DNA of 64,000 nt from an uncultured Candidatus Saccharibacteria bacterium (GCA_964349945.1 CAYGIH010000002.1:125492-189491), one strand, 5' to 3'; positions 9,838-45,004 are shown, counted from the stretch's first letter. A program made the numbers and translations. Notes: generated by a model not told the origin, from the letters alone.

Positions 9838-9844
9838 TGACCAA

Positions 9845-14776: not shown

Positions 14777-15190
14777 ATGTCAACAATCAATCAGCTAGTC
14801 AAGAGAAAAAGAAGCAAAACTACTCGCAAATCAAAGGCGATTGCCCTTACTCGTGGCTTTAATACTATTAAAAACCGCCCAATCTACTTTAACTCTCCAT
14901 TCAAGCGTGGTGTTTGTACCAAGGTGACCACCAAGACTCCAAAGAAACCTAACTCCGCTGTTCGAAAGATTGCCCGTGTTCGTCTATCGAATGGCCAAGA
15001 AGTGACTGCCTACATCCCAGGAGAAGGACACAACCTACAAGAACACTCAGTGGTGGTTATCCGCGGAGGTCGTGTGAAGGACCTTGGAGTTAGATACACT
15101 ATTGTACGAGGACTCCTCGATGCTCAAGGCGTAGAGAAGAGACGACAGTCAAGAAGCCAATATGGAACTAAGAAGCCTAAGGCCAAATAA
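14777..15190 (+). CDS. rpsL: Ribosomal protein S12
   Basis: PTINQLV-like N-terminus and conserved PKKPNSA. One of the few native genes with a GGAGG SD. Confidence 0.95.
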
Positions 15191-15195
15191 TTTTT

Positions 15196-15666
15196 ATGCG
15201 AAGAAAACTCAAAGCCAAACCAAAAATAACCCCAGATTCAGTCTATGAATCAGAAAAAGTAGCGAAGTTTATTAACTACACCATGCTTGAAGGTAAGAAA
15301 ACTACTGCTCGAGGAGTAGTTTATAGAGCGCTTGATGAGATAAAGGAGAAGGCCAAGGTGACTGATCCTATGGAAATCTTTGAACTTGCTTTGAAGAACA
15401 CTGGTCCTACTATGGAAGTTCGTTCTCGAAGAGTTGGAGGTGCGAACTACCAAATCCCACGTGAAGTTCGCCCAGAGAGACGACAACAGCTATCTATGAA
15501 ATGGATTATTGAAGCTGCTCGAAGCAAGAAAGGCAAGCCAATGCATGAGAAACTCGCAGAAGAAATTATTTTGGCTTCAAACAATGAAGGGGATGCAGTG
15601 AAGAAGCGTGAGACTACGCACCGAATGGCTGAAGCCAACAAGGCCTTCGCCCACTTCGCTTGGTAA
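15196..15666 (+). CDS. rpsG: Ribosomal protein S7
   Basis: Conserved S7 sequence and operon position. Confidence 0.95.
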
Positions 15667-15703
15667 TTATTTATTAATATTGTTTTTTTAATTTGTTATT
15701 TAA

Positions 15704-17869
15704 ATGGAACGAGATTATCCACTAGAGAGAGTTAGAAACTTCGGTATCATTGCGCATATTGATGCGGGTAAAACCACAACTTCAGAGCGAGTGCTTTTTT
15801 ATACTGGTGCCCAACACTCAATCGGTGAAGTTCATGAAGGAGATACCACTACTGACTGGATGGAACAAGAGCGAGAGCGAGGTATCACCATCACCGCTGC
15901 GGCCATCACTTGTTTTTGGGCTCCTACATACTTGACCAAAGAGCAACACGAGAAGAAAGAAAATAAATATCGTTTTAATATCATCGATACCCCAGGGCAC
16001 ATCGACTTTACTGTAGAAGTGAAGCGTTCTCTCCGCGTGCTCGACGGTGCAGTTGTGGTTTTCGATGGTGTAGCTGGAGTAGAGCCTCAATCAGAAACAA
16101 ACTGGCGTTATGCAGAAGATGCCAAGGTGCCTCGCGTATGTTTCATCAACAAACTTGACCGAACAGGTGCATCTTTTGAACGTTCATACAAATCTATTTT
16201 GGACAGACTTTCAAAGAAAGCAGTTAGAATGCAAATCCCTATAGGAGAAGAAGATAAACATGAGGGAGTTGTTGATCTTCTAAAAATGAAGGCTTACTAC
16301 TTCGAAGGTAATATGGGTAATCAAGTGGTTGAGAAGGAAATCCCAGCAGAATATCTAGAAACTGCTACAAAATATCGTGCTGACCTCGTAGAAAGAATCG
16401 TAGAAAACGATGAGCACCTCATGAATGCTTACCTTGAAGGTAAGGAAATTTCTCTTGAAGCTCTAAAGGAAACTCTTCGTAAGGCAGTTATCACTAATAA
16501 AATTTTCCCTGTTTATGCTGGTTCAGCTTTGAAGAACAAAGGTGTTCAACTCGTCCTCGATGCAGTGGTTGAACTGCTTCCTTCACCTTTGGACATCCCT
16601 CCTGTTTCTGGTATTGACCCAAACACAGGACTTGAAATCCTTAGACACGCATCTGATTCTGAACCATTTTCAGCACTAGCCTTTAAACTTCAAGCAGACC
16701 CATTCGTTGGTCAGCTTACATTCTTCCGTGTGTATTCAGGAACAATTGAATCAGGAAGTTATATTTACAACTCAACTACAGGCAACAAAGAGAGACTTGG
16801 TCGTATTGTAAGGCTTCAGGCCAACGACAGAGAGGAAGTGAAAAAAGTTTATGCAGGAGAAATCGCCGCCGCAGTAGGCTTGAAGGAAGCCAAGACTTCT
16901 CATACTTTCTCTGATGAAAATTCTCCAATCATCCTCGACCAAATCACATTCCCTGAACCAGTTATTTCTCTCCGTATTGAACCAAAGACAAAAGCTGACC
17001 AAGAGAAAATGGGATTTGCATTGAAGAGACTTTCGGATGAAGACCCAACTTTCAAAATTAAATCAGATTCAGAAACTGGTGAGACAGTTATCATGGGTAT
17101 GGGTGAACTTCACTTAGAAATCCTTGTAGACAGAATGAAGAGAGAATTCTCTGTGGAAGCCAATGTAGGTAAACCTCAAGTGGCTTACAAGGAAACTATC
17201 CAAGGTGAAGCAGAAGTTGATAACAAATACATCAAGCAAACAGGAGGTAAGGGACAATACGGTCACGTACGAATCAAGATTAAACCTCTACCTAAATATG
17301 ATCCAGAAGAGAAAGTACCAAAGAATGCTCATAGGGAAGAAGGTTTCGAATTCATTGATGCTATTAAGGGAGGAGTTATCCCTCAAGAATTTATCCCTGC
17401 AGTAGAGAAGGGAGTGAAGGAAGCTATGGAACGTGGAATCCTCGCAGGCTACAAGATGGTAGATATTTCTTGTGAATTGAATTTCGGTTCTTCACACGAT
17501 GTGGACTCATCAGAAATCGCTTACAAGATTGCTGCCTCTCAAGCATTTCAAGAAGCGGCCAAGAAGGCTCGACCAGTTATCCTTGAACCTATTATGAAAG
17601 TAGAAGTAGTAGTACCTGAGAAGTTCATGGGAGACATCACTGGAAACCTTAGCGGTAAGCGTGGACAGATAGAAGCTATGGAAGACAGAAACGAACTCAA
17701 GGTGGTCCGAGCGATGGTGCCTCTTTCAGAAATGTTCGGATACGTCACCGCTCTTCGTTCTATGACCGAAGGTCGTGGTTCATCCACTATGGAGTTTGAT
17801 CACTATGCTATCGTTCCTCCAAACGTAGCCACAGCTATTATTGAGCAGAGAACAGGAGCAAAGGCTTAA
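15704..17869 (+). CDS. fusA: Elongation factor G
   Basis: G1 motif AHIDAGKTT, DTPGHIDF, 721 aa. Confidence 0.95.
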   Translation: MERDYPLERVRNFGIIAHIDAGKTTTSERVLFYTGAQHSIGEVHEGDTTTDWMEQERERGITITAAAITCFWAPTYLTKEQHEKKENKYRFNIIDTPGHIDFTVEVKRSLRVLDGAVVVFDGVAGVEPQSETNWRYAEDAKVPRVCFINKLDRTGASFERSYKSILDRLSKKAVRMQIPIGEEDKHEGVVDLLKMKAYYFEGNMGNQVVEKEIPAEYLETATKYRADLVERIVENDEHLMNAYLEGKEISLEALKETLRKAVITNKIFPVYAGSALKNKGVQLVLDAVVELLPSPLDIPPVSGIDPNTGLEILRHASDSEPFSALAFKLQADPFVGQLTFFRVYSGTIESGSYIYNSTTGNKERLGRIVRLQANDREEVKKVYAGEIAAAVGLKEAKTSHTFSDENSPIILDQITFPEPVISLRIEPKTKADQEKMGFALKRLSDEDPTFKIKSDSETGETVIMGMGELHLEILVDRMKREFSVEANVGKPQVAYKETIQGEAEVDNKYIKQTGGKGQYGHVRIKIKPLPKYDPEEKVPKNAHREEGFEFIDAIKGGVIPQEFIPAVEKGVKEAMERGILAGYKMVDISCELNFGSSHDVDSSEIAYKIAASQAFQEAAKKARPVILEPIMKVEVVVPEKFMGDITGNLSGKRGQIEAMEDRNELKVVRAMVPLSEMFGYVTALRSMTEGRGSSTMEFDHYAIVPPNVATAIIEQRTGAKA

Positions 17870-17875
17870 TTAATC

Positions 17876-17900
17876 AAAAAAACCGCTTCGGCGGTTTTTT
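17876..17900 (+). terminator. Intrinsic terminator after fusA (AAAAACCGCTTCGGCGGTTTTTT)
   Basis: GC stem CCGC-TTCG-GCGG followed by a T-run. Confidence 0.7.
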
Positions 17901-17942
17901 GAATGGTGTATAATTGATTCATTAATAAATATACATAAAAAT

Positions 17943-18332
17943 ATGGCTGGAAATAAATATGAACCAACCCCAGATGAATTAGCCGATGGGGAAGAAAATT
18001 TAACTGAATACCAGACTCAACTATCAAGAGATAGAAGAGAAATGATGAAAGGTGTTGACTTGGAGCTATTAAAAAAATGTAATTTAGAACTTAATGCTAA
18101 CGGTATGGCGATTATGGGTACGATAGATGGGACTGCAATCAGACTCAGGCTTACACCAGAGGGAGGGTATGGAGGAGGAATAGGGGATCCAGAAGTATTT
18201 TTAGACAATGATATGGCGGAGAAACTTTGGCAAAAATACTATCCGATTGCAAAAATAATAAAACATGATGGTGAGATGGAAACAACCGGAGAGCAAGCAA
18301 AACTTGAGGCGTCTAGATTGTTAAGTTTATAA
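17943..18332 (+). CDS. Hypothetical protein (native GC)
   Basis: 129 aa ORF preceded by a TATAAT box. No SD, as is typical of native genes here. Confidence 0.5.
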   Translation: MAGNKYEPTPDELADGEENLTEYQTQLSRDRREMMKGVDLELLKKCNLELNANGMAIMGTIDGTAIRLRLTPEGGYGGGIGDPEVFLDNDMAEKLWQKYYPIAKIIKHDGEMETTGEQAKLEASRLLSL

Positions 18333-18402
18333 TAGTAAAATAAGTTTTCAACAAAAAAACGGCTTAACAAGGCTGTTTTTTGTTATATTTGAGGCTAAAT
18401 GC

Positions 18403-18431
18403 TTGACATTTAATACTGACTGTGCTATTAT
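18403..18431 (+). promoter_or_regulatory. Near-consensus sigma70 promoter TTGACA-N17-TATTAT driving high-GC cassette gene
   Basis: TTGACA at 18403-18408, 17-nt spacer, TATTAT at 18426-18431. GGAGG SD at 18475-18479. Confidence 0.6.
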
Positions 18432-18485
18432 ACACAAGTACAGATGTCCTTTCCCACTACAACGGCCTAGCGCCGGAGGTATCCC

Positions 18486-19106
18486 GTGAACCGGTTTGAG
18501 AAGCTCCTGAACGCCCTGTTGGCGAAGATCGAGTCCGTCCGCGCCCTGTGCGCTGACATCCCGACCGACGTGGCGACGAAGGTGAGCGAAGAGCTCGCCC
18601 ACGTCGTGAAGGTTCTGCGTGACCCGCAGGCCATCACGACCGGTCGCAACGTCGGCTACGTCGGCGCCCTCGCGGAGGAGGCTCTGAGGGATCTGCGCTC
18701 GAACGAGCGTCGGTTCCTCATCACCCTCGGCACGATCAACGGTCTGCGAGAGCGGATCGGTGCGCTTCACCCGCAGACGCCCATGAAGATGGGGGTCTCG
18801 GACGCCATCACGCTCTACGACATCTCGCGCCAGAATCATGACACGGGGACCGCTGTGCTCCGCACGGAGTACGACGGCATCCTGTTCCTCATGGAGGAGG
18901 CCGAGACCCAGTCCCGGCTTCTGCGCTCGCGCGAAGCGGACGAGCGGATTCGCGAGACCATCGCGAACGGCGTCGTCGGCGCGATCAAGCCGGCCAAGCG
19001 CGGTCGGGCTGCAGGCAAGAGACTTGCTGATGCTGAACGTCGTTCCCAGATGAAGGGCAAGACGAACGGCGGTGGCAAGAACAACCGCAAGCAGAAGACG
19101 GCGTAG
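18486..19106 (+). CDS. High-GC (about 65%) hypothetical protein with basic C-terminal tail; GTG start
   Basis: GGAGG, 6 nt, then GTG. Private promoter and terminator. Composition is foreign to the genome. The antisense ORF 18348-19274 is judged to be a GC artefact. Confidence 0.55.
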   Translation: MNRFEKLLNALLAKIESVRALCADIPTDVATKVSEELAHVVKVLRDPQAITTGRNVGYVGALAEEALRDLRSNERRFLITLGTINGLRERIGALHPQTPMKMGVSDAITLYDISRQNHDTGTAVLRTEYDGILFLMEEAETQSRLLRSREADERIRETIANGVVGAIKPAKRGRAAGKRLADAERRSQMKGKTNGGGKNNRKQKTA

Positions 19107-19107
19107 T

Positions 19108-19168
19108 CGGGGTTCGCCCCACGAAAAGTTCCCACGGATTCCCGTGAGCACTATTCGTGGGGCTTTTT
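19108..19168 (+). terminator. Compound hairpin terminator (GGGGTTCGCCCC ... CCCCACGAA/TTCGTGGGG + T-run)
   Basis: Nested GC hairpins ending in CTTTTTG. Confidence 0.55.
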
Positions 19169-19224
19169 GTTTTCCTAAAAATGTGTAATATAGCCAGAGG
19201 CCCCATAACCAGAGGAGTATGCGC

Positions 19225-19575
19225 ATGTATAATGGTCCGGATTCTGATGTGCAAGGAGTGCCAGTAGTTCCCACTGCATCAGGCCTGTCGAAGGTTCATC
19301 ACAGCGATCTTACGGGTCTTACCCAACCAACGATCAGAGAAGTGGATGCCATGGTGGCCCACTTCAAGGGATGGAAGATGCCATCCCTTGTGGTCGCTCT
19401 TGCTGAGACGGGTTTCGTACATCGTGCGGCATGGTCGCACGGGGAAACCAAGGTTACTCAGGATGAACTCGATCGCGCGAATCGCTGTCTCTCGAAGCAC
19501 ATCACTGGTCAAATCAGGATGAATCGGGAGTACATCTGGTTTGCCAAGACGGGCGGATCAAATCCGGTGAACTAA
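19225..19575 (+). CDS. Mid/high-GC hypothetical protein, second gene of the island
   Basis: GAGGAG SD 7 nt upstream of ATG 19225. Followed by terminator AGGCCCC-AAC-GGGGCCTTTTTT. Confidence 0.45.
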   Translation: MYNGPDSDVQGVPVVPTASGLSKVHHSDLTGLTQPTIREVDAMVAHFKGWKMPSLVVALAETGFVHRAAWSHGETKVTQDELDRANRCLSKHITGQIRMNREYIWFAKTGGSNPVN

Positions 19576-19578
19576 CCC

Positions 19579-19602
19579 AAGGCCCCAACGGGGCCTTTTT
19601 TC
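19579..19602 (+). terminator. Intrinsic terminator
   Basis: GGCCCC/GGGGCC stem plus T6. Confidence 0.65.
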
Positions 19603-19840
19603 TTTAATGAATATTGCCCATTGGATATTGACTATTTTAGTAGTTTTGCGTAAGATAGCCCTTACGCGTCATGTGCCGTTTTTAATTTGCTCTTTGAGAT
19701 CTTTTCTTAATAGACCGAATGAAAATATGGCTTTATTACGCGCTCAATCTAATTCTAGGTCGAAGAGAGCAAATGTTCTCGCGCGCTCCCTTCGTTTTAG
19801 AATTTACCCTTATTTAATTTAATAATAATTATTTACTCAA

Positions 19841-21031
19841 ATGGCAGAATTTAATCGTTCAAAGCCACACCTCAACGTAGGAACCATTGGACACGTTGAC
19901 CACGGCAAGACAACCCTTACAGCAGCAATTTTGAATGTGCTTCACCGCGCAGGCAAGACAGCTACAGTAAAATCAGTAGGTGATATTGATAAGAGTCCTG
20001 AAGAAAAGGCTCGAGGTATTACTATTTCTCTTTCACACAGCGAATACGAGTCAGATGCTCGTCACTACGCTCACGTGGATGCTCCCGGCCACGCCGACTA
20101 CATTAAAAACATGATTACTGGTGCCGCTCAAATGGACGGTGCTATTCTCGTGGTAGCAGCAACAGACGGGGTGATGCCTCAAACTCGTGAACACATCCTA
20201 CTTGCAAAGCAAGTTGGAGTGCCAAAGATTATTGTGTTCTTGAACAAGTGTGACATGGTTCCTGATCCAGAACTCATCGACCTCGTTGAAGAGGAAATCA
20301 GAGAATTGCTCACCAAATACGAATTCGACGGTGCAAATGCTCCTATCATTCGTGGCTCAGCCCTAAAAGCTCTTGAAGCTACAGGTACTGATGATGAATG
20401 GTCAAAGAAAATCCTTGACCTCGTCAACGCCTTGGACACTTACTTCCCAATCCCTGTTCGTGAAGTAGATAAGCCATTCCTAATGCCTATCGAAGACATC
20501 TTCTCTATTGAAGGTCGAGGTACAGTGGTTACTGGTCGTATTGAAAGAGGTATCTGTAAGATTGGTGAAGAAGTAGAAATTGTTGGTATTGAAGCTACTT
20601 CAAAGACAACCATTACTGGTATTGAAATGTTCAACAAACAACTCCAAGAAGGACAAGCTGGAGACAATGCCGGAATCTTGCTCCGTGGTGTGAAGAAAGA
20701 AGAATTGCATCGAGGACAAGTGCTTGCTAAACCAGGAAGCGTAACTCCTCATACAGAGTTCACAGCAGAAGTTTACATCTTGAAGAAGGAAGAAGGGGGA
20801 AGACACACTCCATTCTTCACTGGATACAAGCCTCAGTTCTATGTCAGAACAACTGACGTGACTGGAGAAGTAACTCTTGCTGAAGGAGTAGAAATGGTTA
20901 TGCCTGGAGATACAGTGACCTTCAAAGTTAAGCTCGTAGCACCAGTGGCCCTTGAGGAGCAGACTCGTTTCGCTATCCGTGAAGGAGGCAAGACAGTAGG
21001 TGCCGGAGTGGTAACAAAGGTTATCGCCTAA
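19841..21031 (+). CDS. tuf: Elongation factor Tu
   Basis: [19 protein letters not shown] motifs. 396 aa. Confidence 0.95.
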
Positions 21032-21053: not shown

Positions 21054-21437
21054 ATGGCCAAGGAAACAACAAAACCGAAAGAGAAATCAAAAGCAAAGAC
21101 AAAAAGTACCGCAGTGAAGGCTGAAGAAGGCATTTCAATGTTGCGTATTAGAGTCAGAGCTTATGAATCTAAGATTCTGGATGTTTCTGTGAAGCAGATT
21201 ATAGACACAGCACTTCGCTATGATGCAGAAGTGATGGGTCCGATACCTCTGCCAACCGAAATAAAGAAATATACGGTGAATCGTGCTGCATTCGTCTACA
21301 AAAACGCGCGAGAACAGTTTGAGATGCGAATACACAAGAGACTCATCGATATCAAGAATCCAAATCAGAAAATTATTGAATCTCTTACGAACATGAATCT
21401 TCCTTCCGGTGTAAACATAGACGTAAAGCTCGTCTAA
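21054..21437 (+). CDS. rpsJ: Ribosomal protein S10 (with N-terminal Lys-rich extension)
   Basis: S10 core from about residue 28 (LRIRVRAYE...). Confidence 0.9.
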   Translation: MAKETTKPKEKSKAKTKSTAVKAEEGISMLRIRVRAYESKILDVSVKQIIDTALRYDAEVMGPIPLPTEIKKYTVNRAAFVYKNAREQFEMRIHKRLIDIKNPNQKIIESLTNMNLPSGVNIDVKLV

Positions 21438-21455
21438 TAATTCAGAAAATCCAAT

Positions 21456-22073
21456 ATGAAATTCCTTCTCGCCAAAAAGGTGAATATGACTCAAGTCTTC
21501 GATGAAAAGGGCGCGACCTATCCGGTCACGATCCTTTCTGCTACTCCAGTTAAGGTCACCAACATAAAAGATATGGCTCGAGATGGATATAAGGCTGTTC
21601 AAGTAGGATTTGGTGAGAAGCGCGAGAAGAACATCACTAAAGCTCGTCTAGGACAAATGGGAGGTAATAAATTCGAACATCTAAAGGAATACAAACTTAA
21701 AGATGCGGATACCATCCCTGCAGTTGGTGACTCAATCGACCTCTCTATCTTTAGTGAAGGAGACAAGGTTGAAGTGACTGCTGTTTCTAAGGGTAAAGGA
21801 TTCCAAGGAGTGGTGAAGAGACACAAGTTTGGTGGAGGCCGACGTTCACACGGACAGAAACACTCTGAACGTGAACCAGGTTCTATTGGTGGAGGTGCTC
21901 GTGCAGGAGGTCGTGTAGCCAGAGGATTAAGGATGGCTGGCAGAATGGGGAGTGATCGTGTTACAGTGTCAAACCTAAAGATTATAAAAATCTTACCTGA
22001 CACCAATGAGATTATGGTTCATGGAGCTGTCCCTGGGAAGAAGGGGACACTAGTGGAAATCTGGTCAAAGTAA
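21456..22073 (+). CDS. rplC: Ribosomal protein L3
   Basis: Conserved L3 sequence and S10-operon order. Confidence 0.9.
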   Translation: MKFLLAKKVNMTQVFDEKGATYPVTILSATPVKVTNIKDMARDGYKAVQVGFGEKREKNITKARLGQMGGNKFEHLKEYKLKDADTIPAVGDSIDLSIFSEGDKVEVTAVSKGKGFQGVVKRHKFGGGRRSHGQKHSEREPGSIGGGARAGGRVARGLRMAGRMGSDRVTVSNLKIIKILPDTNEIMVHGAVPGKKGTLVEIWSK

Positions 22074-22082
22074 TTCAAAAAC

Positions 22083-22799
22083 ATGGAAGCAAAAGTCTAC
22101 GACATAAATGCCAAAGAAAAATCATCAATCTCTCTCCCAGAGAATCTTTTTGGACTTCCATGGAATTCTGACCTTGTTCACCAAGTTGCAACCTCTCTAA
22201 ATTCATCAAAGAGAAAAACCGTCGCTCATACAAAGAACCGATCAGAGGTTCGTGGTGGAGGCAAGAAGCCTTGGCAACAAAAGGGCACAGGTCGCGCTCG
22301 ACACGGATCAACTCGTTCCCCAATTTGGGTAGGTGGAGGTGTTGCTCATGGACCAAGGAACGAAGAGAACTTTGACCGCAAGGTTTCAAAGAAAATGAAA
22401 GCCAAGGCTTTCTACACTATTCTCTCAAGGAAGTTCAAGGACGGAGAAGTGCTCTTTGTAGACTCTATTTCTTTCAAGGAACCAAAGACCAAGCTTGCCA
22501 TAGGAGCTATGAAGAAGCTTGAAGGCATCAAAGGTTTTGAGATGATTTTCAAGAAGAAAAATAATTCTGCAGTCATTGCTCTTGGAGAGAAAAATACTTC
22601 TACAGAGAAAGCTATTTCAAATCTTTCAAATATGGAAGTGATTGAATCCAGAAACTTGCACCCACTTGCACTTCTAAAATACAAATATTTGGTTATAGAA
22701 AATCCAGAAGTTTCTCTAAAGAACCTCCCGGGCCAACTTACCAAGAAGGTTATGGAGAAAGAAGCTCCAAAGAAAAAAGTAGTAGCCAAGAAAAAATAA
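22083..22799 (+). CDS. rplD: Ribosomal protein L4
   Basis: Conserved L4 core with a Lys-rich C-terminal extension. Confidence 0.9.
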   Translation: MEAKVYDINAKEKSSISLPENLFGLPWNSDLVHQVATSLNSSKRKTVAHTKNRSEVRGGGKKPWQQKGTGRARHGSTRSPIWVGGGVAHGPRNEENFDRKVSKKMKAKAFYTILSRKFKDGEVLFVDSISFKEPKTKLAIGAMKKLEGIKGFEMIFKKKNNSAVIALGEKNTSTEKAISNLSNMEVIESRNLHPLALLKYKYLVIENPEVSLKNLPGQLTKKVMEKEAPKKKVVAKKK

Positions 22800-22803
22800 A
22801 TTT

Positions 22804-23094
22804 ATGACTACCCACATCCAACCAGCAACAGTTCTACTTCGTCCAAGAGTGACAGAGAAAGCAGCGCTCAAAGCAGACAAATCAAACATCTATGTTTTTG
22901 AGGTGACGAAGGGTGCTACCAAGAAACAAATCATCGCTTCTATAAAGGATGCATACAAGGTGACTCCTATATCTGTTCATCTCCTAGCTATCCCTAGGAA
23001 GGAAGTTTTTCGCAGAGGTAAGTCAGGTATAAAGGGGGGAGGCAAGAAAGCTTATATTGAATTAAAAAAGGGAGATAAAATCGAAGTAATATAA
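22804..23094 (+). CDS. rplW: Ribosomal protein L23
   Basis: Operon position and conserved sequence. Confidence 0.9.
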   Translation: MTTHIQPATVLLRPRVTEKAALKADKSNIYVFEVTKGATKKQIIASIKDAYKVTPISVHLLAIPRKEVFRRGKSGIKGGGKKAYIELKKGDKIEVI

Positions 23095-23104
23095 TACAAA
23101 TTTT

Positions 23105-23944
23105 ATGAAGAAATACAGACCAACATCTCCATCAAGACGACAAACTTCAAACGTTGAATTCAAAAAATTCACCACTACAAACGAACCTTTGAAGTCTTTA
23201 ACCAAGGGTTTTAGACGAGCCAATGGACGCAACAATACAGGTAGAATCACCACTCGACACAAAGGGGGAGGACACAAAAGACTTTTTAGAGAAATAGACT
23301 TTACATACAACAAACTCAATGTGCCTTTCACTATTAAAACTGTTGAATACGATCCAAATCGTTCTGGTTTCATTGGACTTGTGGCTTATAAGGATGGAGA
23401 GAGACGATATGCACTTCTACACAAAGGAGTTAAAATTGGGGAAACATTTGTAGCCGGAGAAAATGCTCCTTTGGTGCCTGGGAACAAACTACCTCTAAAG
23501 AATATCCCTGTTGGAACATTCGTATACAACGTAGAACTAAAGCCAAATGGTGGAGCTCGCATCGCTCGCTCTGGAGGAAACTATGTAGAAGTGAGTGCGA
23601 AGGATGGTGGTTATGTAGATGTGAAGATGCCTTCATCAGAAGTTCGAAAAGTTATTGAAACTGCTTATGCAACTATCGGTGAAGCTTCAAATGATGAGAA
23701 CCGTCTTACAAATCTAGGTAAGGCAGGGAGAAATAGATGGTTAGGAGTTCGTCCAACTGTCCGAGGTACTGCTCAAAACCCAGTAGACCACCCACATGGA
23801 GGAGGAGAAGGAAGACAAGGAAGAGGACGCAGACGAGCAATCTCTGTTTATGGGAAGCCAACAGGCAAGGGACAAAAATCTCGACGCTCAAAGAAATATT
23901 CAAACAAACATATTGTCAGAAGACGAAAAGTTGGCAAGAAATAA
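23105..23944 (+). CDS. rplB: Ribosomal protein L2
   Basis: Conserved L2 (GGGHK, HPHGGGEG). Confidence 0.95.
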   Translation: MKKYRPTSPSRRQTSNVEFKKFTTTNEPLKSLTKGFRRANGRNNTGRITTRHKGGGHKRLFREIDFTYNKLNVPFTIKTVEYDPNRSGFIGLVAYKDGERRYALLHKGVKIGETFVAGENAPLVPGNKLPLKNIPVGTFVYNVELKPNGGARIARSGGNYVEVSAKDGGYVDVKMPSSEVRKVIETAYATIGEASNDENRLTNLGKAGRNRWLGVRPTVRGTAQNPVDHPHGGGEGRQGRGRRRAISVYGKPTGKGQKSRRSKKYSNKHIVRRRKVGKK

Positions 23945-23949
23945 AATCA

Positions 23950-23974
23950 AAAATCCCCACTCGGGGATTTTTTG
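23950..23974 (+). terminator. Intrinsic terminator after rplB (AAATCCCC-ACTC-GGGGATTTTTT)
   Basis: Perfect 6-bp GC stem plus T-run. Unexpected here, because rpsS normally follows directly. Confidence 0.7.
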
Positions 23975-24025
23975 TAACACACTTCGGGGTTATACTTTCA
24001 ACAGACACTTAACCGAGGATTGATT

Positions 24026-24268
24026 ATGAGTGAAGCTCAAGAAAAAAATCCTTGGATTAGGTTTGTATATAGTCCATGCGATGATGATCATCGAGTAGTA
24101 GTTGATTTTGTGAACCAACATGAACTGCCGGTCATACTTGATTCAAATGAATGCGCTCCACATCCAGAACTTCGGGTGAATCATGGAGAGATTCTGACTG
24201 GCGCTGATAAAATCATAAACCACTTGAAGGCACAGTTTGCCCACCTCATCACCCCAATGCCTAGTTAG
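24026..24268 (+). CDS. Small thioredoxin-fold (GST-N/glutaredoxin-like) protein
   Basis: GAGGA SD 6 nt before ATG. FVYSPCDDDHRVVVDFVNQHELPVILD resembles the GST-N beta-alpha-beta core. Weak call. Confidence 0.35.
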   Translation: MSEAQEKNPWIRFVYSPCDDDHRVVVDFVNQHELPVILDSNECAPHPELRVNHGEILTGADKIINHLKAQFAHLITPMPS

Positions 24269-24400
24269 GCATTTTTTTGTTTATATTGACAAATATTATA
24301 CATATTGTAATGTTTCTTTGTTTCCGATAGGTGAAGAACACTTTACTCATGGAGCAGATCTCCTTGAGCCACAACGGCGGAACAGTTCTTTGGGGGTTCT

Positions 24401-24799
24401 ATGAGTGAAATTGCTGGATTCATCGGGTGGTGCATCATTGTCATGCTATTTGGTAGCGTTATTATCATGATCCTCGAGATGATCAAAAACTGGTTTACTC
24501 AGAACTCTCGGTTCATTGATGAGTTTGTTGATCAAGGAACGGTCAACTTCAAGATCAGGAATCTCGCTATCGAACTCAAGGATCTCTTTGATCAGCAGAT
24601 CGAAGAGCAAAAGAGGTTTTCTGGGGACTCTCTCCATCAGCGCGAGCACAACATCAATTCGTTTTCTGAGCTTGTTTCTGAAAAGAAGGGGAAGTTTTGG
24701 AAGGTGGTCAATCTGGCCAAGAAGGTCGGCTTCGACACTCCCAGCACCATCGAAGAAGCGCTCGTATTGCCGATTGTCTTTGAAGAAGACGACGATTGA
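24401..24799 (+). CDS. Hypothetical N-terminally membrane-anchored acidic protein
   Basis: TTGACA-type promoter at about 24287, long leader, GGGGG before ATG, one TM helix, terminator at about 24822-24850. Confidence 0.45.
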   Translation: MSEIAGFIGWCIIVMLFGSVIIMILEMIKNWFTQNSRFIDEFVDQGTVNFKIRNLAIELKDLFDQQIEEQKRFSGDSLHQREHNINSFSELVSEKKGKFWKVVNLAKKVGFDTPSTIEEALVLPIVFEEDDD

Positions 24800-24996
24800 T
24801 CTAGTAATCGTCATTATGTCTTTGGCCATCCGTAAGGGTGGTTTTTTCATTGACAAAAACCTAAAATCCTATAAAGTATCCGCATAAGGTCAAAGACAAG
24901 AGGCGAACAATAAGTCCTCTCGAGACTACTCTCTCTGCAATAGCGGACGTTGAGACCTTATATAGGTCGATTTTTTTAGCCAAAAAACAAAACCAA

Positions 24997-25485
24997 ATGG
25001 CAATATCAAGAACCAAAAAAGGAGAAATAATTGATAAGCTCCAAGGAGCGCTCAAGGGTGCCAAGTCTCTTGTTTTCGTGAACTTCCATGGTTTAAAAGT
25101 TTCTGATGCCACCGCGATGCGCCGAGCCCTCAAGGGCGAAGGTGTCTCATACGCAGTGACTAAGAAAAGTTTAACCAAAAGAGTTTTAGCAGATGAGAAG
25201 TTTGAAGGTACGCAACCAGAGCTCACAGGTGAACTGGCAATGGCTTGGTCAGAAGACCTCATTGCCCCAGCCCGTGGAGTTTACGGCTTCCAAAAAAAAT
25301 TCCCAGAAGGTATTCAAATCCTCGGTGGAGTTTTCGAAGGACGATACATGGATAAGAAGGAGATGGAAGGCATCGCCACCATCCCAACTACAGATGTACT
25401 CCGTGGAATGTTTGTGAACATCATCAATTCTCCAATACAGCGTTTCGCTATCGCGCTCAATGAGGTAGCAAAAACTAAGAACTAA
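24997..25485 (+). CDS. rplJ: Ribosomal protein L10
   Basis: Conserved L10 sequence. About 145-nt structured leader upstream. Confidence 0.9.
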   Translation: MAISRTKKGEIIDKLQGALKGAKSLVFVNFHGLKVSDATAMRRALKGEGVSYAVTKKSLTKRVLADEKFEGTQPELTGELAMAWSEDLIAPARGVYGFQKKFPEGIQILGGVFEGRYMDKKEMEGIATIPTTDVLRGMFVNIINSPIQRFAIALNEVAKTKN

Positions 25486-25498
25486 TTAATTATAAAAT

Positions 25499-25861
25499 AT
25501 GACACAAGAACAAATCATCGAAGCTGTAGAGAAGTTGAGTGTACTAGAACTCAACACTCTAGTGAAGGCTATTGAAGAAAAGTGGGGTGTTTCAGCTACA
25601 GCCGTAGCGGCCGCAGGACCTGCAGCAGCCGGTGAAGCAGTAGAAGCCAAGTCAACAGCAGATGTAGAACTTACAGACGCTGGTGCCAATAAGATTGCAG
25701 TTATCAAGGTAGTGAAGGAAGTGCTCGCCCTAGGCCTCAAAGAAGCCAAGGATCTCGTAGATGCAGCACCTTCAATGCTTAAAGCAGGAATGAAGAATGA
25801 TGAAGCCGCAGATCTCAAGAAAAAGATTGAGGAAGCAGGCGGAAAGGTTACTTTAAAGTAA
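25499..25861 (+). CDS. rplL: Ribosomal protein L7/L12
   Basis: Ala-rich hinge and conserved C-terminal domain ([18 protein letters not shown]). Confidence 0.92.
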
Positions 25862-25881
25862 TAAATCATTTGTTCCGATTC

Positions 25882-25906
25882 AAAAAACCGCTTAGGCGGT
25901 TTTTTG
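25882..25906 (+). terminator. Intrinsic terminator after rplL (AAAAAACCGCTTAGGCGGTTTTTTG)
   Basis: Near-identical to the fusA terminator. Confidence 0.7.
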
Positions 25907-25963
25907 TTGACACTGAAACTCACAAGAGTAATCTATCTATAGACGGTCCCCCAAGGAGGAACG

Positions 25964-26221
25964 GTGCGTGCCACCCTAATGGATGTAAGGATCTTGTGGC
26001 TCGTCTGGTTGTATGAGAACAGACGGCCTGCGCGGAGTAAGACGCGCAAGGATCTGAACGCGCGTTTCCTCGGAATGTTCAAGGAAATTGCGAAGATAAC
26101 CAGGAAGAAGATTGGCTTTCCTGGTCGACCAGACGACGAGGTGCCTCTGGACGAGAAGTCGGATGCCCTCTACTGTCGAATGGAAAAAGAGTGGGACAGA
26201 GTCATGTCCCGCAAGAGGTGA
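25964..26221 (+). CDS. High-GC small basic hypothetical protein (85 aa), GTG start
   Basis: TTGACA at 25907-25912. AAGGAGG SD at 25953-25959, then GTG. Terminator AAACCCTATCGCTTTGATAGGGTTTTT follows. Confidence 0.45.
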   Translation: MRATLMDVRILWLVWLYENRRPARSKTRKDLNARFLGMFKEIAKITRKKIGFPGRPDDEVPLDEKSDALYCRMEKEWDRVMSRKR

Positions 26222-26288
26222 AACCCTATCGCTTTGATAGGGTTTTTACTTACTGGCATTCCTTATAGATTGTGAGTAGAATGGCCGT

Positions 26289-26849
26289 ATGACAAAGTCA
26301 GTATCCAATATCTTCGGCGGTGAAGCCAAGGTGAAAATAATGCGTTTATTCATATTTAATCCAGGCACTATTTTCGAAGCTTCAGCTGTATCAGATAGAA
26401 CCCAAGAAAGACGTGCGGTAGTAGCCAGAGAAATTCGCAATTTAATGAAGGGAGGTTTACTCAGAAAAAAAGGTAAGGGTTATACATTAAATTATGATTA
26501 TCCTTTTGTTGAAGCCTTGAATAGTTTCCTCATAGATGCGAGTCCTATTTCAGAAAAGGAAATAATCAAAAAGGTTTCTCGTGCAGGAACGATGAAGCTC
26601 ATTTTAATTTCTGGGGTATTCCTTCATGATCCAGAAGCCAGAGTTGATATGCTCGTAGTGGGGGACCATCTAAAGAAAGGTGTTTTGGTTCAAGCTATTA
26701 GTTCTATTGAAGCCATGCTCGGCAGGGAAATTCGCTATGCATCGTTTGAAACGGCTGATTTTCAATATAGATTAGGTCTCTATGACAAGCTCGTTCGAGA
26801 TATCCTCGACTTCAACCACAAGAAAATCCTTAATAAATTAGGAGTTTAG
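26289..26849 (+). CDS. Hypothetical protein (possible winged-helix N-terminal domain)
   Basis: 186 aa at native GC. No confident family assignment. Confidence 0.4.
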   Translation: MTKSVSNIFGGEAKVKIMRLFIFNPGTIFEASAVSDRTQERRAVVAREIRNLMKGGLLRKKGKGYTLNYDYPFVEALNSFLIDASPISEKEIIKKVSRAGTMKLILISGVFLHDPEARVDMLVVGDHLKKGVLVQAISSIEAMLGREIRYASFETADFQYRLGLYDKLVRDILDFNHKKILNKLGV

Positions 26850-26981
26850 CTTTATTTATTATCCACAAACCCTATACAATCATTGTTTTTATGGTTTTTG
26901 GCGGTGTATAATAAAGCATACCCCTAAAAAGAGGTAACATTAATAATAAGTGCATTTGCACAGACCCTCAGTCAAGAACAT

Positions 26982-27671
26982 ATGTTGATTAATACATGGG
27001 GACAAGTTCTCACACTTTCATTCCAGAATCTTTGGATGGGAGTTGTAGCCTTTGTTCCACAGTTAGTTGTCGCAATTATTATCCTCATCCTCGGATGGCT
27101 CATCGGCGCATTATTTGGCCGAGCTGTCTGGCAGGTGTTCCGTTCTCTAAGAGTTGATGAAGCTCTAAGACGAGCAGGTTTTGAAACATTCCTTCGCCGA
27201 GGAGGACTAAACCTCGATTCTGGTGCTTTCATTGGCGGACTTGTTAAGTGGTTTGTGATCCTTGTTTTCCTTATTGGATCATTCAACGTTCTAGGTCTCA
27301 GCCAAGTTAACGCATTCATTAGTGATGTTGTTCTTCTTTACCTCCCTCGCGTAATTGTCGCTGCCCTCATCCTACTTGTAGGAGGAGTAGTTGGTGATGT
27401 TATCGATCGAGTAGTAGTCACAGCAGCTAAGACAGCTGAAATTCGTTCAGCACACTTCGCTGGTTCACTTTCAAAGTGGGCAGTTTGGGTATTTGCTATC
27501 CTTGTCGCGCTTAGTCAGCTCGGCATCGCGGCAGCCTTTAGTCAAACTCTCTTCACAGGTATTGTTATAGCTATCTCTCTTGCACTAGGCCTTTCATTTG
27601 GTCTTGGAGGTCAAGAAGCAGCGGCTCGATTTATCGAGAAGCTACGTGGAGAGATGAGTGGGAATAAGTAA
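26982..27671 (+). CDS. Conserved-TM-helix repeat membrane protein (MscS-related TM_helix family-like)
   Basis: Four similar amphipathic/TM repeats (LVVAIIILILGWLIGALFGRAV..., VIVAALILLVGGVVGDVIDRVV...). Confidence 0.5.
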   Translation: MLINTWGQVLTLSFQNLWMGVVAFVPQLVVAIIILILGWLIGALFGRAVWQVFRSLRVDEALRRAGFETFLRRGGLNLDSGAFIGGLVKWFVILVFLIGSFNVLGLSQVNAFISDVVLLYLPRVIVAALILLVGGVVGDVIDRVVVTAAKTAEIRSAHFAGSLSKWAVWVFAILVALSQLGIAAAFSQTLFTGIVIAISLALGLSFGLGGQEAAARFIEKLRGEMSGNK

Positions 27672-27752
27672 AAAGAAGTATTATAGCTAGATAATACTTC
27701 AACTTGCATAAAAGGGCCCTATTTAGGGCTCTTTTATGTATTATAAATGTCC

Positions 27753-27781
27753 TTGACTTTATACATCAAGTATGCTATTAT
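27753..27781 (+). promoter_or_regulatory. Consensus sigma70 promoter TTGACT-N17-TATTAT
   Basis: TTGACT at 27753-27758, 17-nt spacer, TATTAT at 27776-27781. Preceded by terminator AAAAGGGCCCTATTTAGGGCTCTTTT. Confidence 0.6.
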
Positions 27782-27835
27782 AGACAGGTACGCTCTTTAG
27801 TTATACTCCCTTTAACGTATTACCACGGAGTAGCC

Positions 27836-28408
27836 ATGACGGTTGCGATGATGCAGGACCAGAGCTCGTCCGAAGGCCTTTGCCTCAAGGACGTGAACAC
27901 GGTGCTGGTGAATTTCAACTTCACCAACCCGCGAGTTGTGCCGCAGGGTCTGCGACATGTCGAACGCAAGAGCGAGCGCGAGCTCCTCGAGCGTCGCAAG
28001 CAGCAGGGCGTTGGTACCGGCCATCAGGTCGTGAACAATGCTCAGCAGACGCAGGTCGCGATGCTCCGCAAGGGTCTCTCGTCGAATGGCTTCCACCTCG
28101 TGGACAGCCACACGACCGAGATCGCGCGTCCGGGCCGCCAGAAGAAGTACCGGGTCGTGCTGCAGTTCCGGCGTATGGAGGCCGGCGAACAGGCTCCTGA
28201 GATTCCTTCGGAAGCTCTCGCCGATCTGCGCAGTCTCGCCACTGACGCTGTCTGGTCCGGCCACGTCTGGTCGAACCCGAACGGCGTGGCGGCGGTGGAC
28301 CTTGTCCAGCGCCAGCCGGGCACCCTTCCGAAGCATGCGTTCGTCACCCGCAAGGGGTGGATCGTGGCGGAGCCGGTGAGCCAGCTCGTTGCGGAAGACG
28401 GGGAGTAA
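27836..28408 (+). CDS. High-GC (about 63%) hypothetical protein, 190 aa
   Basis: GGAG SD at 27827-27830, ATG at 27836. Terminator at 28436-28462. The antisense ORF 27812-28480 is rejected as a GC artefact. Confidence 0.55.
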   Translation: MTVAMMQDQSSSEGLCLKDVNTVLVNFNFTNPRVVPQGLRHVERKSERELLERRKQQGVGTGHQVVNNAQQTQVAMLRKGLSSNGFHLVDSHTTEIARPGRQKKYRVVLQFRRMEAGEQAPEIPSEALADLRSLATDAVWSGHVWSNPNGVAAVDLVQRQPGTLPKHAFVTRKGWIVAEPVSQLVAEDGE

Positions 28409-28435
28409 TTCGCACAAGGGACTGTTCTGGGTCCA

Positions 28436-28462
28436 AGGTCGTCTGAAAAGGCGACCTTTTTT
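28436..28462 (+). terminator. Intrinsic terminator (AGGTCGTC-TGAAAAG-GCGACCTTTTTT)
   Basis: Hairpin plus T6. Confidence 0.65.
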
Positions 28463-28473
28463 CTTATAATAGT

Positions 28474-28502
28474 TTGACAATACGCCTTGATTTCTATACT
28501 AT
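28474..28502 (+). promoter_or_regulatory. Consensus promoter TTGACA-N17-TACTAT directly upstream of rpsS, with 5'-UTR hairpin AAGCTC-TCTCTC-GAGCTT (28511-28528)
   Basis: Seen directly in the sequence. A private rpsS promoter is unusual. Confidence 0.5.
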
Positions 28503-28539
28503 ATCTTCCTAAGCTCTCTCTCGAGCTTCTTTATTTCTC

Positions 28540-28881
28540 ATGACCAGATCATCGAAGAAAGGCCCATATGTAGACCCTCGAGTCTTGAAAAAGATTGAAG
28601 GCAAAAAGCCCGGCGAAACCGGTGTTATTAAGACTTGGGCCCGAGCATGTCAGATTGCTCCAGAAATGGTTGGTTTTACTTTCGGTGTTCATAATGGCAA
28701 GGACCACATCGAGGTTTTTGTCACCGAAGACATGGTTGGTCACCGATTAGGAGAGTTTTCTCTTACTCGCAAGTTTAATAAACACGGAGGAAAGATGCAG
28801 AAAGAGCTCGAGATGAAAAAGAAAGAATCAGAACTAGCAGCAGCCAAGGCGGCCAAAGGTTCAGCAGATGCGAAGAAATAA
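28540..28881 (+). CDS. rpsS: Ribosomal protein S19 (with Lys/Ala-rich C-terminal extension)
   Basis: [13 protein letters not shown]...[23 protein letters not shown] core. Confidence 0.9.
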
Positions 28882-32010: not shown

Positions 32011-32029
32011 AACTCAATAAATAGTTATC

Positions 32030-32058
32030 TTGACAATACACCTCAAACGGTGTATTTT
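32030..32058 (+). promoter_or_regulatory. Promoter TTGACA-N17-TATTTT with palindrome ACACC-N6-GGTGT (32038-32053) in the spacer; second palindrome GGTGT-GTG-ACACC (32085-32097) over SD/start codon
   Basis: Seen directly in the sequence. Operator-like dyads overlap the promoter and the translation start. Confidence 0.5.
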
Positions 32059-32089
32059 CTTTTGAGAAAAACCTAACGCCGGAGGGTGT

Positions 32090-32710
32090 GTGACACCAAA
32101 CATTAGTTTTTGGATGCAGGTGTTGGGTGGTACTTTTTACACTCTGAATAAGATCTTCTTCAGCTTTAAGGAGAGAAGTAGTGGAGAAAGAGCGCGTCAG
32201 TGGAGAATCTGGGCCTGGATTGTGTATATCATCGGCTTGGCTCCCTGGCTCGTGATTCTCTCACACGAGAGGAATTGGATGGTGACCTTCGTCGAAGCGG
32301 GCGGAGCTCCTGCAATGTTTCTTGGGCTCATCCTTGCTTTTCGTAGGGCTGATGATCATCCAAGTGAACAGAACAAAAGGCTCGAGAACTTTTTCGACAA
32401 GTTTGCCCGAGTTGCAGCGGTTCTCGGTATCGCCTTTAGTCTTTATGATGTTGGCTTGATGAAGTCGTGGACACAGTGGGCTGAGCTTGGAGTGACGATT
32501 GGTTTCTTGGTTGGGACATATCGTTTGGCCAAGGATCATTTGGATGGTTACCTCTGGTTCTTACTCATGAATTTTTCCTGCTGTGTGCTCATGAACCTAC
32601 AAGGATACAAGTGGCTGGCATTTCAGCAGTTGTTGTCCCTTGTGTTTGTCCTCGATGCTTACAAGGTGAAGAAGTACAGACCCACAGATCCATATTGGTA
32701 TGTTCCTTGA
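32090..32710 (+). CDS. High-GC (about 52%) polytopic membrane protein, GTG start; family unclear (weak PnuC-like features)
   Basis: GGAGG at 32081-32085, GTG at 32090. 5-6 TM helices, Trp-rich (WRIWAW, ERNWMV). Confidence 0.5.
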   Translation: MTPNISFWMQVLGGTFYTLNKIFFSFKERSSGERARQWRIWAWIVYIIGLAPWLVILSHERNWMVTFVEAGGAPAMFLGLILAFRRADDHPSEQNKRLENFFDKFARVAAVLGIAFSLYDVGLMKSWTQWAELGVTIGFLVGTYRLAKDHLDGYLWFLLMNFSCCVLMNLQGYKWLAFQQLLSLVFVLDAYKVKKYRPTDPYWYVP

Positions 32711-32735
32711 CCGACGATGTTGTCGGTCTTTTTAT
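32709..32735 (+). terminator. Intrinsic terminator GACCGAC-GATGTT-GTCGGTCTTTTT
   Basis: Perfect 7-bp stem plus T5. Confidence 0.7.
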
Positions 32736-32763
32736 TGACTATATTTTGCTATAAGGTTATATT
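32735..32763 (+). promoter_or_regulatory. Consensus promoter TTGACT-N17-TATATT
   Basis: TTGACT at 32735-32740, TATATT at 32758-32763. Confidence 0.6.
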
Positions 32764-32803
32764 TTGTCGAGATTTTTTGTTCACATGTACATTTGGAGGA
32801 AGG

Positions 32804-33097
32804 ATGCCGAAACGTTTTGTGATTCTTAGCAACCCGAGCGAGTTTGAACTCATCATGTCGCTCTGGGACAGGAAATCTGGTCCGAGATCAGTACGTTTTG
32901 ACTGTATCGAGAACATTGAAGACGATGCAGACAAGGAAGTGACTTTCGAAGTTCACATCCTTCTCCTGAGGCGGGATCGTACGAACTCTCATGAATGGAC
33001 CTTCAGGGGAGTAATTGAGGAGACCAACGAGGAAGTTAGTGGTCTTTGTTCCACTGATTCTGAAGATCGAGGAGAGTACGTTCTCATCTTTGCTTAA
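32804..33097 (+). CDS. Mid-GC small acidic hypothetical protein (98 aa)
   Basis: GGAGG at 32795-32799, ATG at 32804 (MPKRFVILSN...). Terminator at 33098-33121. Confidence 0.5.
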   Translation: MPKRFVILSNPSEFELIMSLWDRKSGPRSVRFDCIENIEDDADKEVTFEVHILLLRRDRTNSHEWTFRGVIEETNEEVSGLCSTDSEDRGEYVLIFA

Positions 33098-33152
33098 CCA
33101 CGCTCTGGTCGTGGTTTTTTTATATAAAAAATCCGCCTAGTTTCAGGCGGAT
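33098..33152. terminator. Back-to-back terminators (+: ACCACG-CTCTGGT-CGTGGTTTTTTT; -: ATCCGCCT-GAAACT-AGGCGGATTTTTT)
   Basis: Convergent cassette genes end here. Confidence 0.6.
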
Positions 33153-33334
33153 GTTGCGTGGACTGGGACGGGCTTAGGTTCTTGTATTTCGGATTCTTCT
33201 TGATCTGGGAAGCAGATCATCGCGAAGCCTTCAGCAGCAGCTTCCAAAAAGAGGATAGCATCCTCTGCGCTACTGGTTAGGGCTTTCATGAGGTCTCTTA
33301 CTTCCTGATCATCTTCGGACCAAGCAGGCGCCAT
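33143..33334 (-). CDS. Small acidic hypothetical protein (63 aa)
   Basis: Minus-strand promoter TTGTCA (33397-33402)-N17-TATATT (33374-33379). GGAG SD 5 nt before ATG at 33334. The longer ORF to 33511 is rejected. Confidence 0.45.
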   Translation of the reverse strand: MAPAWSEDDQEVRDLMKALTSSAEDAILFLEAAAEGFAMICFPDQEESEIQEPKPVPVHATSA

Positions 33335-33458
33335 CACGTCTCCATGTGTTGAGGAACTGGGGGGTCCAGGCTCAATATAGCTAAAATCACTAGGTTTGAC
33401 AAGATAGGGCTTTATGATAAGCTGAATTACCAGCTTTTCGAAGCTATTTTTATTCAAT

Positions 33459-44905: not shown

Positions 44906-45004
44906 CCTAAAACATTTTTGTATACAAAAATGTTCGGGCGATCGATTTGTAAACAAATCGATTTAGCCATAAAGCATCCTTGTATAAATGTTCGGGCGAA
45001 CAAA

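Follow-up and report, generated by a model that had tools for sequence, protein, structure and literature searches.

A four-gene rplJ-rplL cassette between rplB and rpsS: a probable lineage-specific gene order in one clade of Paceibacteria

The adjacency of rplB and rpsS, coding for ribosomal proteins L2 and S19, is generally held to be among the most conserved in bacterial genomes and is assumed in binning, phylogeny, and synteny checks. It is interrupted in a stretch of 64,000 nucleotides from an uncultured bacterium (GCA_964349945.1, CAYGIH010000002.1:125492-189491), analysed as a whole and referred to below as the window (approximately 40% GC, sequence of the Parcubacteria/Paceibacteria type). 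There, the two genes lie 4,595 bp apart (gap at 23945-28539), and the gap is filled by rplJ-rplL, coding for L10 and L7/L12, and six further open reading frames (ORFs). The initial annotation left two possibilities, namely an unprecedented rearrangement or a composite/engineered locus, which raises the question of whether this gene order is genuine. Most probably (with a rough probability of 0.85), the gene order of the block is genuine and was inherited vertically within one clade of Paceibacteria (Parcubacteria; NCBI class Minisyncoccia).

The genes of the str-S10-spc supercluster were retrieved on the plus strand, and their arrangement, from S12 to S8 and further, follows the canonical supercluster in relative order and in orientation. 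Likewise, the S10 gene set rpsJ-rplC-rplD-rplW-rplB-rpsS-rplV-rpsC-rplP is retained in the same order on that one strand. The ORFs in the gap are, in this order, o82, o132, rplJ, rplL, o85, o186, Msc229, and hgc190, and these as well as rplB and rpsS are single-copy within the window. As annotated before, rplB runs into a terminator, rpsS restarts 4.6 kb further on behind its own promoter and a hairpin in the 5'-untranslated region (5'-UTR), and the L10-L7/L12 pair is situated inside the S10 gap, where Pfam identifies both genes. The order departs from that of the canonical bacterial S10 operon, and rplJ-rplL is displaced from its rplKAJL-rpoBC context. The principal features are the following.

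21054-23944, plus strand: S10, L3, L4, L23, and L2 (rpsJ-rplC-rplD-rplW-rplB)
23105-23944, plus strand: rplB (L2), closing gene of the upstream S10 fragment; the identical gene on contig L001 (see below) carries PF00181 and PF03947
23949-23972, both strands: predicted bidirectional intrinsic terminator after rplB (AAAAATCCCCACTCGGGGATTTTT), a 10-bp hairpin with T-runs on both strands
24850-24877, plus strand: predicted rplJ promoter TTGACA-16-TAAAGT, a consensus match conserved in relatives
24880-24996, plus strand: rplJ leader, delimited by fold, covariation, and a covariance model
24997-25485, plus strand: rplJ (L10; PF00466, E 8e-18)
25499-25861, plus strand: rplL (L7/L12; PF00542 and PF16320), 13 nt after rplJ
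25882-25906: predicted terminator after rplL
26289-26849, plus strand: o186, whose product combines a winged helix-turn-helix at the N-terminus with an alpha/beta domain at the C-terminus
26982-27671, plus strand: Msc229, a small membrane protein and last gene of the cassette (PF05552, E 9e-14, in two stretches)
28474-28502, plus strand: predicted rpsS promoter TTGACA-17-TACTAT, a consensus match conserved across the clade
28511-28528, plus strand: rpsS 5'-UTR hairpin, followed by a U-rich tract
28540-28881, plus strand: rpsS (S19; PF00203, E 1e-32), opening the downstream fragment rpsS-rplV-rpsC-rplP and following genes

A lookup of the exact L10 protein retrieved two contigs from assemblies of other sequencing runs (ERR3094302 and ERR3094292), namely L001 (7,926 bp) and L002 (5,271 bp), both of which are 100% identical to the window at the nucleotide level. 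The four joins questioned in the initial annotation (23945, 24996, 25862, and 28539) are all spanned by L001, and the first two by L002 as well, so that a composite or engineered locus is contradicted by other assemblies of the region. Furthermore, when one genome per GTDB species was scanned, 80 loci were obtained (L10 identity 55-98%; loci and contigs are numbered with the prefix L), the neighbourhoods of which were read by tblastn with the window proteins. The order L2 | L10-L12-o186-Msc | S19 was found on one contig in 19 GTDB species (L004-L013, L015, L022-L025, L027, L028, L034, and L037) and likewise in the metagenome contigs L083 and L086; identities of the core proteins range from 65 to 98% across this set, and approximately 11 further genomes agree with L2 | cassette | S19 as far as the contig end. 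The arrangement is hence not unprecedented; comparison of gene order with relatives had been named beforehand as the refuting test, and the finding of the same order argues for a lineage-specific but genuine arrangement. In the closest GTDB relative (L003, 'Minisyncoccia bacterium'; L10 identity 98%), the core DNA is 87-90% identical to that of the window, and alignment fails in the gene bodies of o82 and o132 and in part of that of hgc206, an accessory gene in the gap between the genes for EF-G and EF-Tu.

In neighbour-joining analysis of the four cassette proteins, the genomes with L2 | cassette | S19 form a single clade. The clade with EF-G | cassette | EF-Tu is its sister, and both are nested among lineages in which the cassette is free. 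The cassette is located right after the EF-G gene or right before the EF-Tu gene in L031-L033, L035, and L036 (both flanks seen in L031, L032, and L036), and after the L5 gene in L080. Apart from L063 and L069 (see below), the other loci had no ribosomal neighbour within 10 kb of the cassette; one example is the complete chromosome behind L065, where its neighbours encode a glycosyltransferase, a methyltransferase, and an LCAT-like protein. In L080, which is a distant relative, an element of approximately 170 nt is repeated directly upstream of rpsS and rplJ (approximately 5930-6101 and 9830-10000), reading '...aatgcgactat...atcccctccttat...aaaagaaggggatgatgattttctaa...aaaatctatcATG', which may be a mobile or structured leader insert.

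The genes rplJ, rplL, o186, and Msc229 occur together as one cassette in all 75 Paceibacteria loci that possess all four, o186 being a conserved partner of rplJL throughout. A putative winged helix-turn-helix protein and a membrane protein with repeated transmembrane (TM) helices were already named in the initial annotation. The pair o186-Msc is inverted and divergent from rplJ-rplL in 10 of the 75 loci, with the linkage kept (L038, L039, L044, L045, L047, L049, L055, L067, and L072 are listed as such), a layout typical of a regulator and its target. No Pfam or NCBIfam match above threshold was obtained for o186; it shares the winged helix-turn-helix fold with regulators of the MarR/ArsR type, although its C-terminal alpha/beta domain is atypical of MarR. 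Msc229 possesses two conserved TM helices of the type found in MscS mechanosensitive channels but lacks the PF00924 channel/beta domain, and its score with the NCBIfam msc model (75 bits) is below the cutoff of 100.

The cassette also carries a structured rplJ leader. Its minimum free energy fold has a z-score of -2.7 and contains a closing stem (AUAAGGUC/GACCUUAU) that encloses a three-way junction and is mutually exclusive with a terminator-like hairpin (GACCUUAUAUAGGUC plus U-run). An inner helix shows double compensatory changes at four of its five pairs among 17 species. A covariance model of the leader (R1) gave one match per locus in 60 of 81 sources, and wherever the cassette sits this match was immediately before rplJ; 43 of these 60 sources were outside the training set, and there was no off-target match in 1.24 Mb. 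With Rfam, no RNA family was found at the gathering threshold in the whole window or at E <= 1 in the block, the lone weak match (NRON) being attributable to chance. In known systems, the rplJL leader is controlled by the L10(L12)4 complex, translationally in Escherichia coli and by transcription attenuation in Bacillus subtilis (PMC4538822). The window leader has the architecture expected of the latter, with a terminator-like hairpin competing with an upstream pairing, and thus resembles an L10(L12)4 autoregulatory attenuator; by this analogy, L10(L12)4 would bind to it.

At the other end of the block, the predicted rpsS promoter (TTGACA...TATACTAT) is conserved among 26 sequences, including the clade with the cassette elsewhere. 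In nearly all of these, a comparable hairpin folds 8-11 nt past the -10 box, with a U-rich tract after it. Its stems are of at least three kinds (AAGCUC/GAGCUU, AAGCGU/ACGCUU, and UCCCGC/GCGGGA), and the recurrence of a comparable hairpin with different stem sequences indicates selection on structure. As MAFFT had misregistered the hairpin arms, RNAalifold returned no pairs on the alignment upstream of rpsS, and the hairpin was assessed by folding each sequence singly. Its role may be in stabilising the mRNA at the 5' end or in attenuation. In the sister clade, in which the cassette occupies another position, the L2 and S19 genes are 935-1572 bp apart, and a -10-like box (CTATAGTA/CTATAATA) and hairpin are present. 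The retention of promoter and hairpin in genomes with the cassette elsewhere suggests that the wider group as a whole has an operon boundary at L2|S19, plausibly older than the cassette insertion.

The joints around the cassette vary, as do others in the supercluster. The gap lengths across species are as follows.

L2-L10: 182-4265 bp
L12-o186: 15-4283 bp
Msc-S19: 147-3957 bp
EF-G-EF-Tu: 176-3465 bp
L5-S14: 24-1874 bp

These gaps contain many small families, nearly all on the plus strand, among which a bacterial PH-domain protein, TruD (minus strand), a cold-shock protein, a HicA toxin pair, and several ORFan families. In the window, the accessory ORFs of the L2-L10 and L12-o186 gaps are the following.

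24020-24268, plus strand: o82, 82 amino acids (aa), with its own predicted terminator at 24256-24273
24401-24799, plus strand: o132, a TM-anchored acidic protein of 132 aa, as read from the translation
24824-24843: predicted terminator after o132
25964-26221, plus strand: o85, 85 aa, with a predicted TTGACA promoter, AAGGAGG, a GTG start, and a predicted terminator at 26222-26248

The existence of o82 stood as annotated, and its description as a thioredoxin-fold mini-protein is unverified, since the sole Pfam match was below threshold (E 0.027); a PDB sequence search gave no match, and homologues were found in L005 only, in two copies (61% and 29%). The TM-anchored acidic protein was recovered as o132, for which gene callers had chosen a minus-strand ORF (24446-24856). 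The plus strand is preferred, as only the plus frame has a homologue (43%, in L003); in L003, the promoter flank of o132 is conserved and the gene body is not. The high-GC, GTG-start gene o85 was likewise as described, with a GC content at third codon positions (GC3) of 0.67 and a homologue only in L003 (71%). Intrinsic terminators were predicted after rplB, o82, o132, rplL, o85, and hgc190, and each accessory ORF of the window lies between a promoter-like site and a terminator, a moron-like layout. Repeats in the block are short promoter or terminator look-alikes only; no attC-like sites were found, and, in contrast with an integron or site-specific cassette system, no integrase domain was seen among the block ORFs in Pfam, NCBIfam, and PHROGs scans. 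The same three databases gave nothing for o82, o132, o85, hgc190, hgc206, and hgc118.

Three families each occur in two different joints, namely the hgc206 family, 'fam10', and the HicA pair, which is evidence for cassette movement. The two-gene HicA module is located in the L12|o186 gap of L005 (11197-11747) and in the EF-G|EF-Tu gap of L020 (2345-2908), with 68% nucleotide identity, and the homology is limited to the two coding sequences (CDSs), stopping at their borders. Tentatively, the supercluster joints (EF-G|EF-Tu, L2|L10, L12|o186, Msc|S19, and L5|S14) might be preferred landing sites for mobile, self-contained single-gene cassettes, a possibility that is rather doubtful at present. 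If true, it would imply either an unrecognised mechanism that exchanges cassettes from a GC-rich pool of genes, or selection on individual genes for codons ending in G or C.

A subset of the accessory genes has a GC3 of 0.7-0.9 strictly inside the CDS, in host genomes with a GC3 of about 0.3-0.45, and these CDS-confined GC-rich ORFans are the most unusual element of the locus. Two of them in the ribosomal cluster of the window are hgc190 and hgc206, the former being the 190-aa high-GC gene of the initial annotation.

27752-27791, plus strand: predicted hgc190 promoter, TTGACT-17-TATTAT with extended -10
27836-28408, plus strand: hgc190, 190 aa, 64% GC (GC1/2/3 of 0.70/0.41/0.81)
28435-28458, plus strand: predicted hgc190 terminator
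18402-18441: predicted hgc206 promoter
18486-19106: hgc206, 206 aa, in the fusA-tuf gap (GC1/2/3 of 0.65/0.44/0.85)

By comparison, the median GC3 of the window is 0.34 (interquartile range 0.29-0.41), and the GC content directly outside both CDSs drops to 0.34-0.40. The two promoters are 73% similar over 40 nt (TTGAC(A/T)-N17-TGCTATTATA). The hgc190 product belongs to an uncharacterised family of approximately 200 aa, the profile of which retrieved 173 cluster representatives, none with a Pfam match; its AlphaFold2 (AF2) model has a predicted local distance difference test score (pLDDT) of 92.6 and a predicted fold without PDB match. Members of this family often have a high GC3 regardless of the host, and others show no excess; one reaches 0.92 in a contig of the candidate phyla radiation (CPR) with 38.7% GC, between polA and truD. 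A family member followed by truD on the opposite strand was found in L004 (12551-14671), L008, L009, L010, and L089 (8001-10425). The latter is a distant CPR contig, in which the truD pairing lies outside the ribosomal cluster, and L021 has truD in the same gap with no hgc190-family member detected. Homologues of hgc206 were found in the EF-G|EF-Tu gaps of L003 and L004 and in the Msc|S19 gap of L014. The idea that all high-GC ORFs constitute one superfamily was rejected, as the hgc190 profile misses the hgc206 family, and no viral or phage homologues of the high-GC genes were matched in INPHARED or IMG/VR. Between Msc and rpsS, the metagenome contigs L083 (6518-8600) and L086 (2039-3468) carry two to three consecutive ORFs of approximately 200 aa without Pfam match, which may be a tandem array of GC-rich ORFan families.

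Other explanations of the block have to be weighed against these data. A chimeric assembly or artificially composed locus, with the four joins as artefacts, might be suspected from the non-canonical gene order and from the sharp GC shift (0.34 to 0.64 to 0.40) around 27836-28408. Besides the identical contigs crossing the joins, however, the same order recurs in at least 19 species from unrelated studies, and the GC jump matches CDS boundaries exactly, with homologous high-GC genes at the same site in L004-L009 and L023, so that this explanation is effectively refuted. The rplJ-rplL pair might also be an extra copy, recently inserted by, for instance, a mobile element, with the functional copy at the canonical rplKAJL-rpoBC site, given that the block carries foreign-looking genes and the data reach loci rather than a whole genome. 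This is improbable, as the cassette is orthologous in 75 loci and the tree groups all genomes with L2 | cassette | S19 in one clade, none of which appears twice among the L10 matches (the only genome contributing two contigs, CAZAXK01 with L058 and L061, is outside the clade). Furthermore, no relative has L11/L1 or RpoBC genes beside rplJ: tblastn with L11, L1, and NusG (E. coli queries; E <= 0.1) gave no match within 10 kb of rplJ in 82 loci or in the window, and the RpoB/RpoC motifs NADFDGD and GRHGNKG were found neither in the window nor in the 82 loci. In addition, the GC3 of the L10 and L12 genes is host-like (0.44 and 0.36), the borders display no long flanking repeats or tRNA genes, and no integrase-like domain was seen in the block ORFs.

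Still less credible is the acquisition of the whole block as a genomic island from a high-GC donor. The GC3 values of hgc190 (0.81), o85 (0.67), and o132 (0.60) do exceed the window median, but the deviation is confined to single CDSs with host-like intergenic flanks (0.34-0.41), the cassette genes have a host-like GC3 (0.34-0.44), and the block core is vertically inherited, without phage or viral matches. It is also highly unlikely that the stretches of high GC content at 27800-28450 and 18450-19600 represent structured non-coding RNAs (ncRNAs), or that the real gene is a 222-aa ORF on the minus strand (27812-28480). Islands of high GC content in an AT-rich genome are a classic sign of ncRNAs, both strands contain long ORFs, and the Prodigal-type calls in L001 took the minus strand. 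The plus frame of hgc190, however, displays a coding pattern (GC3 0.81 > GC1 0.70 > GC2 0.41); its protein is 52% identical to P0002 and P0003, encoded at the same place upstream of rpsS on other contigs, with conserved motifs, and it seeds the family and yields the confident AF2 model mentioned above. Moreover, similarity is 46-50% for the plus frame and 29-32% for the minus frame, the ORF is flanked by a plus-strand promoter and terminator, and Rfam finds nothing. The minus-strand ORF over hgc190 is spurious.

Several points limit the case for a single, vertically inherited arrangement. In L063 and L069, the cassette follows the L2 gene with no S19 gene downstream, which suggests that the association with the L2 junction may have more than one origin. 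The tree was built quickly by neighbour joining from the cassette proteins themselves and is not an independent species tree. There was no sign of a duplicate rplJL in the loci and contigs covered (one copy in the window and a single locus from 79 of 80 related genomes). Also, the predicted promoters and terminators are consensus matches only. Finally, Rfam L10_leader (RF00557) gave no match to 23900-28600 at E <= 1, and the leader is hence termed L10-leader-like and not a member of that family.

If the gene order is indeed genuine and vertically inherited, the ribosomal supercluster of this group would be a chain of self-contained transcription units rather than a few long operons. The predicted promoters and terminators being presumed to work, rplB would end at its terminator and rpsS would start from its own strong sigma-70-type promoter and 5' hairpin. 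A pre-existing cassette of four genes (rplJ, rplL, and those for the winged-helix and MscS-TM-like proteins) would have been placed once into a rplB|rpsS boundary that plausibly predated it; with it would have come a promoter of its own and a structured leader containing a terminator-like hairpin. The own promoter and leader would make regulation independent of position, so that the autonomous cassette could sit anywhere; the rplJL unit would thus be portable because it carries its own leader. The joints L2|L10, L12|o186, and Msc|S19 would be hot spots, where small, fast-evolving accessory genes with their own promoter and terminator are gained and lost. In that case, the S10 operon would be divisible into independently promoted units without gene loss, and pipelines reading this order as a misassembly would discard good contigs. 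Candidates for study in uncultured organisms are the new rpsS 5' element, the L10-leader variant, the conserved winged-helix/membrane-protein partner of rplJL, and the CDS-confined GC-rich ORFans.

Rearrangement of ribosomal gene clusters is a known kind of event; new is a portable rplJL cassette at the rplB|rpsS boundary throughout a clade. Compared with the canonical supercluster, the window is cut at EF-G|EF-Tu, L2|S19, and L5|S14 into fragments predicted to be separately terminated and promoted, and the breaks hold 1.2-4.6 kb of unrelated genes. In the canonical S10 operon, rplB and rpsS are contiguous and co-transcribed, whereas a predicted terminator and a separate rpsS promoter with 5' hairpin intervene here. 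The adjacent rplJ-rplL genes behind a structured leader are shared with rplKAJL-rpoBC, but the latter has rplK/rplA upstream and rpoBC downstream, neither of which was found in the 82 loci, and the winged-helix and MscS-TM-like proteins come after rplL in place of rpoBC. Phage morons are ORFs with their own promoter and terminator and a deviant base composition, inserted between conserved genes. The ORFs hgc190, o85, o82, and o132 are alike in promoter-like site, terminator, setting between conserved genes, and composition; the full set of moron-like traits, including deviant composition, was found for hgc190 and o85, with signals that are consensus matches. They differ from morons in residing in a ribosomal cluster instead of a phage and in a composition shift that ends at the CDS borders and does not cover the whole unit. 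In the literature, neither this arrangement nor GC-rich ORFans in CPR were found described. In Gammaproteobacteria and Bacilli, insertions of several genes are reported between the core operons of the ribosomal cluster (PMC6735719 and PMC8046335), likewise at operon boundaries of an otherwise conserved cluster; by comparison, the break described here falls inside S10, a unit that elsewhere forms one operon, and the insert includes other ribosomal protein genes.

The str part of the window and the other two breaks comprise the following features.

14777-17869, plus strand: S12, S7, and EF-G
17870-19840: second break (fusA-tuf), with o129, the 206-aa ORF at 18486-19106 (hgc206), and a 118-aa ORF at 19219-19575 (GC3 0.55)
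19841-21031, plus strand: EF-Tu
32011-33458: third break (rplE-rpsN), with a membrane protein of 206 aa resembling NMN transporters (PF04973, E 1.8e-5, below cutoff), an ORFan of 126 aa, and a 122-aa ORF on the minus strand overlapping the rpsN start

The terminators after fusA (17877-17901) and rplL (25882-25906) are 25-mers that are 96% identical, AAAAAACCGCTT(C/A)GGCGGTTTTTTG. Elsewhere in the window, two small minus-strand ORFs deviate in GC3 (43816-44061, 0.77; 48344-49066, 0.61), indicating that GC-rich ORFs are not confined to the ribosomal cluster. They adjoin a tmRNA gene (44512-44906) and a tRNA-Ile gene (49419-49493, minus strand), respectively. The codon AUA is usually decoded in bacteria by a lysidine-modified CAT tRNA, and the anticodon of this tRNA-Ile, as assigned by ARAGORN, is the uncommon TAT.

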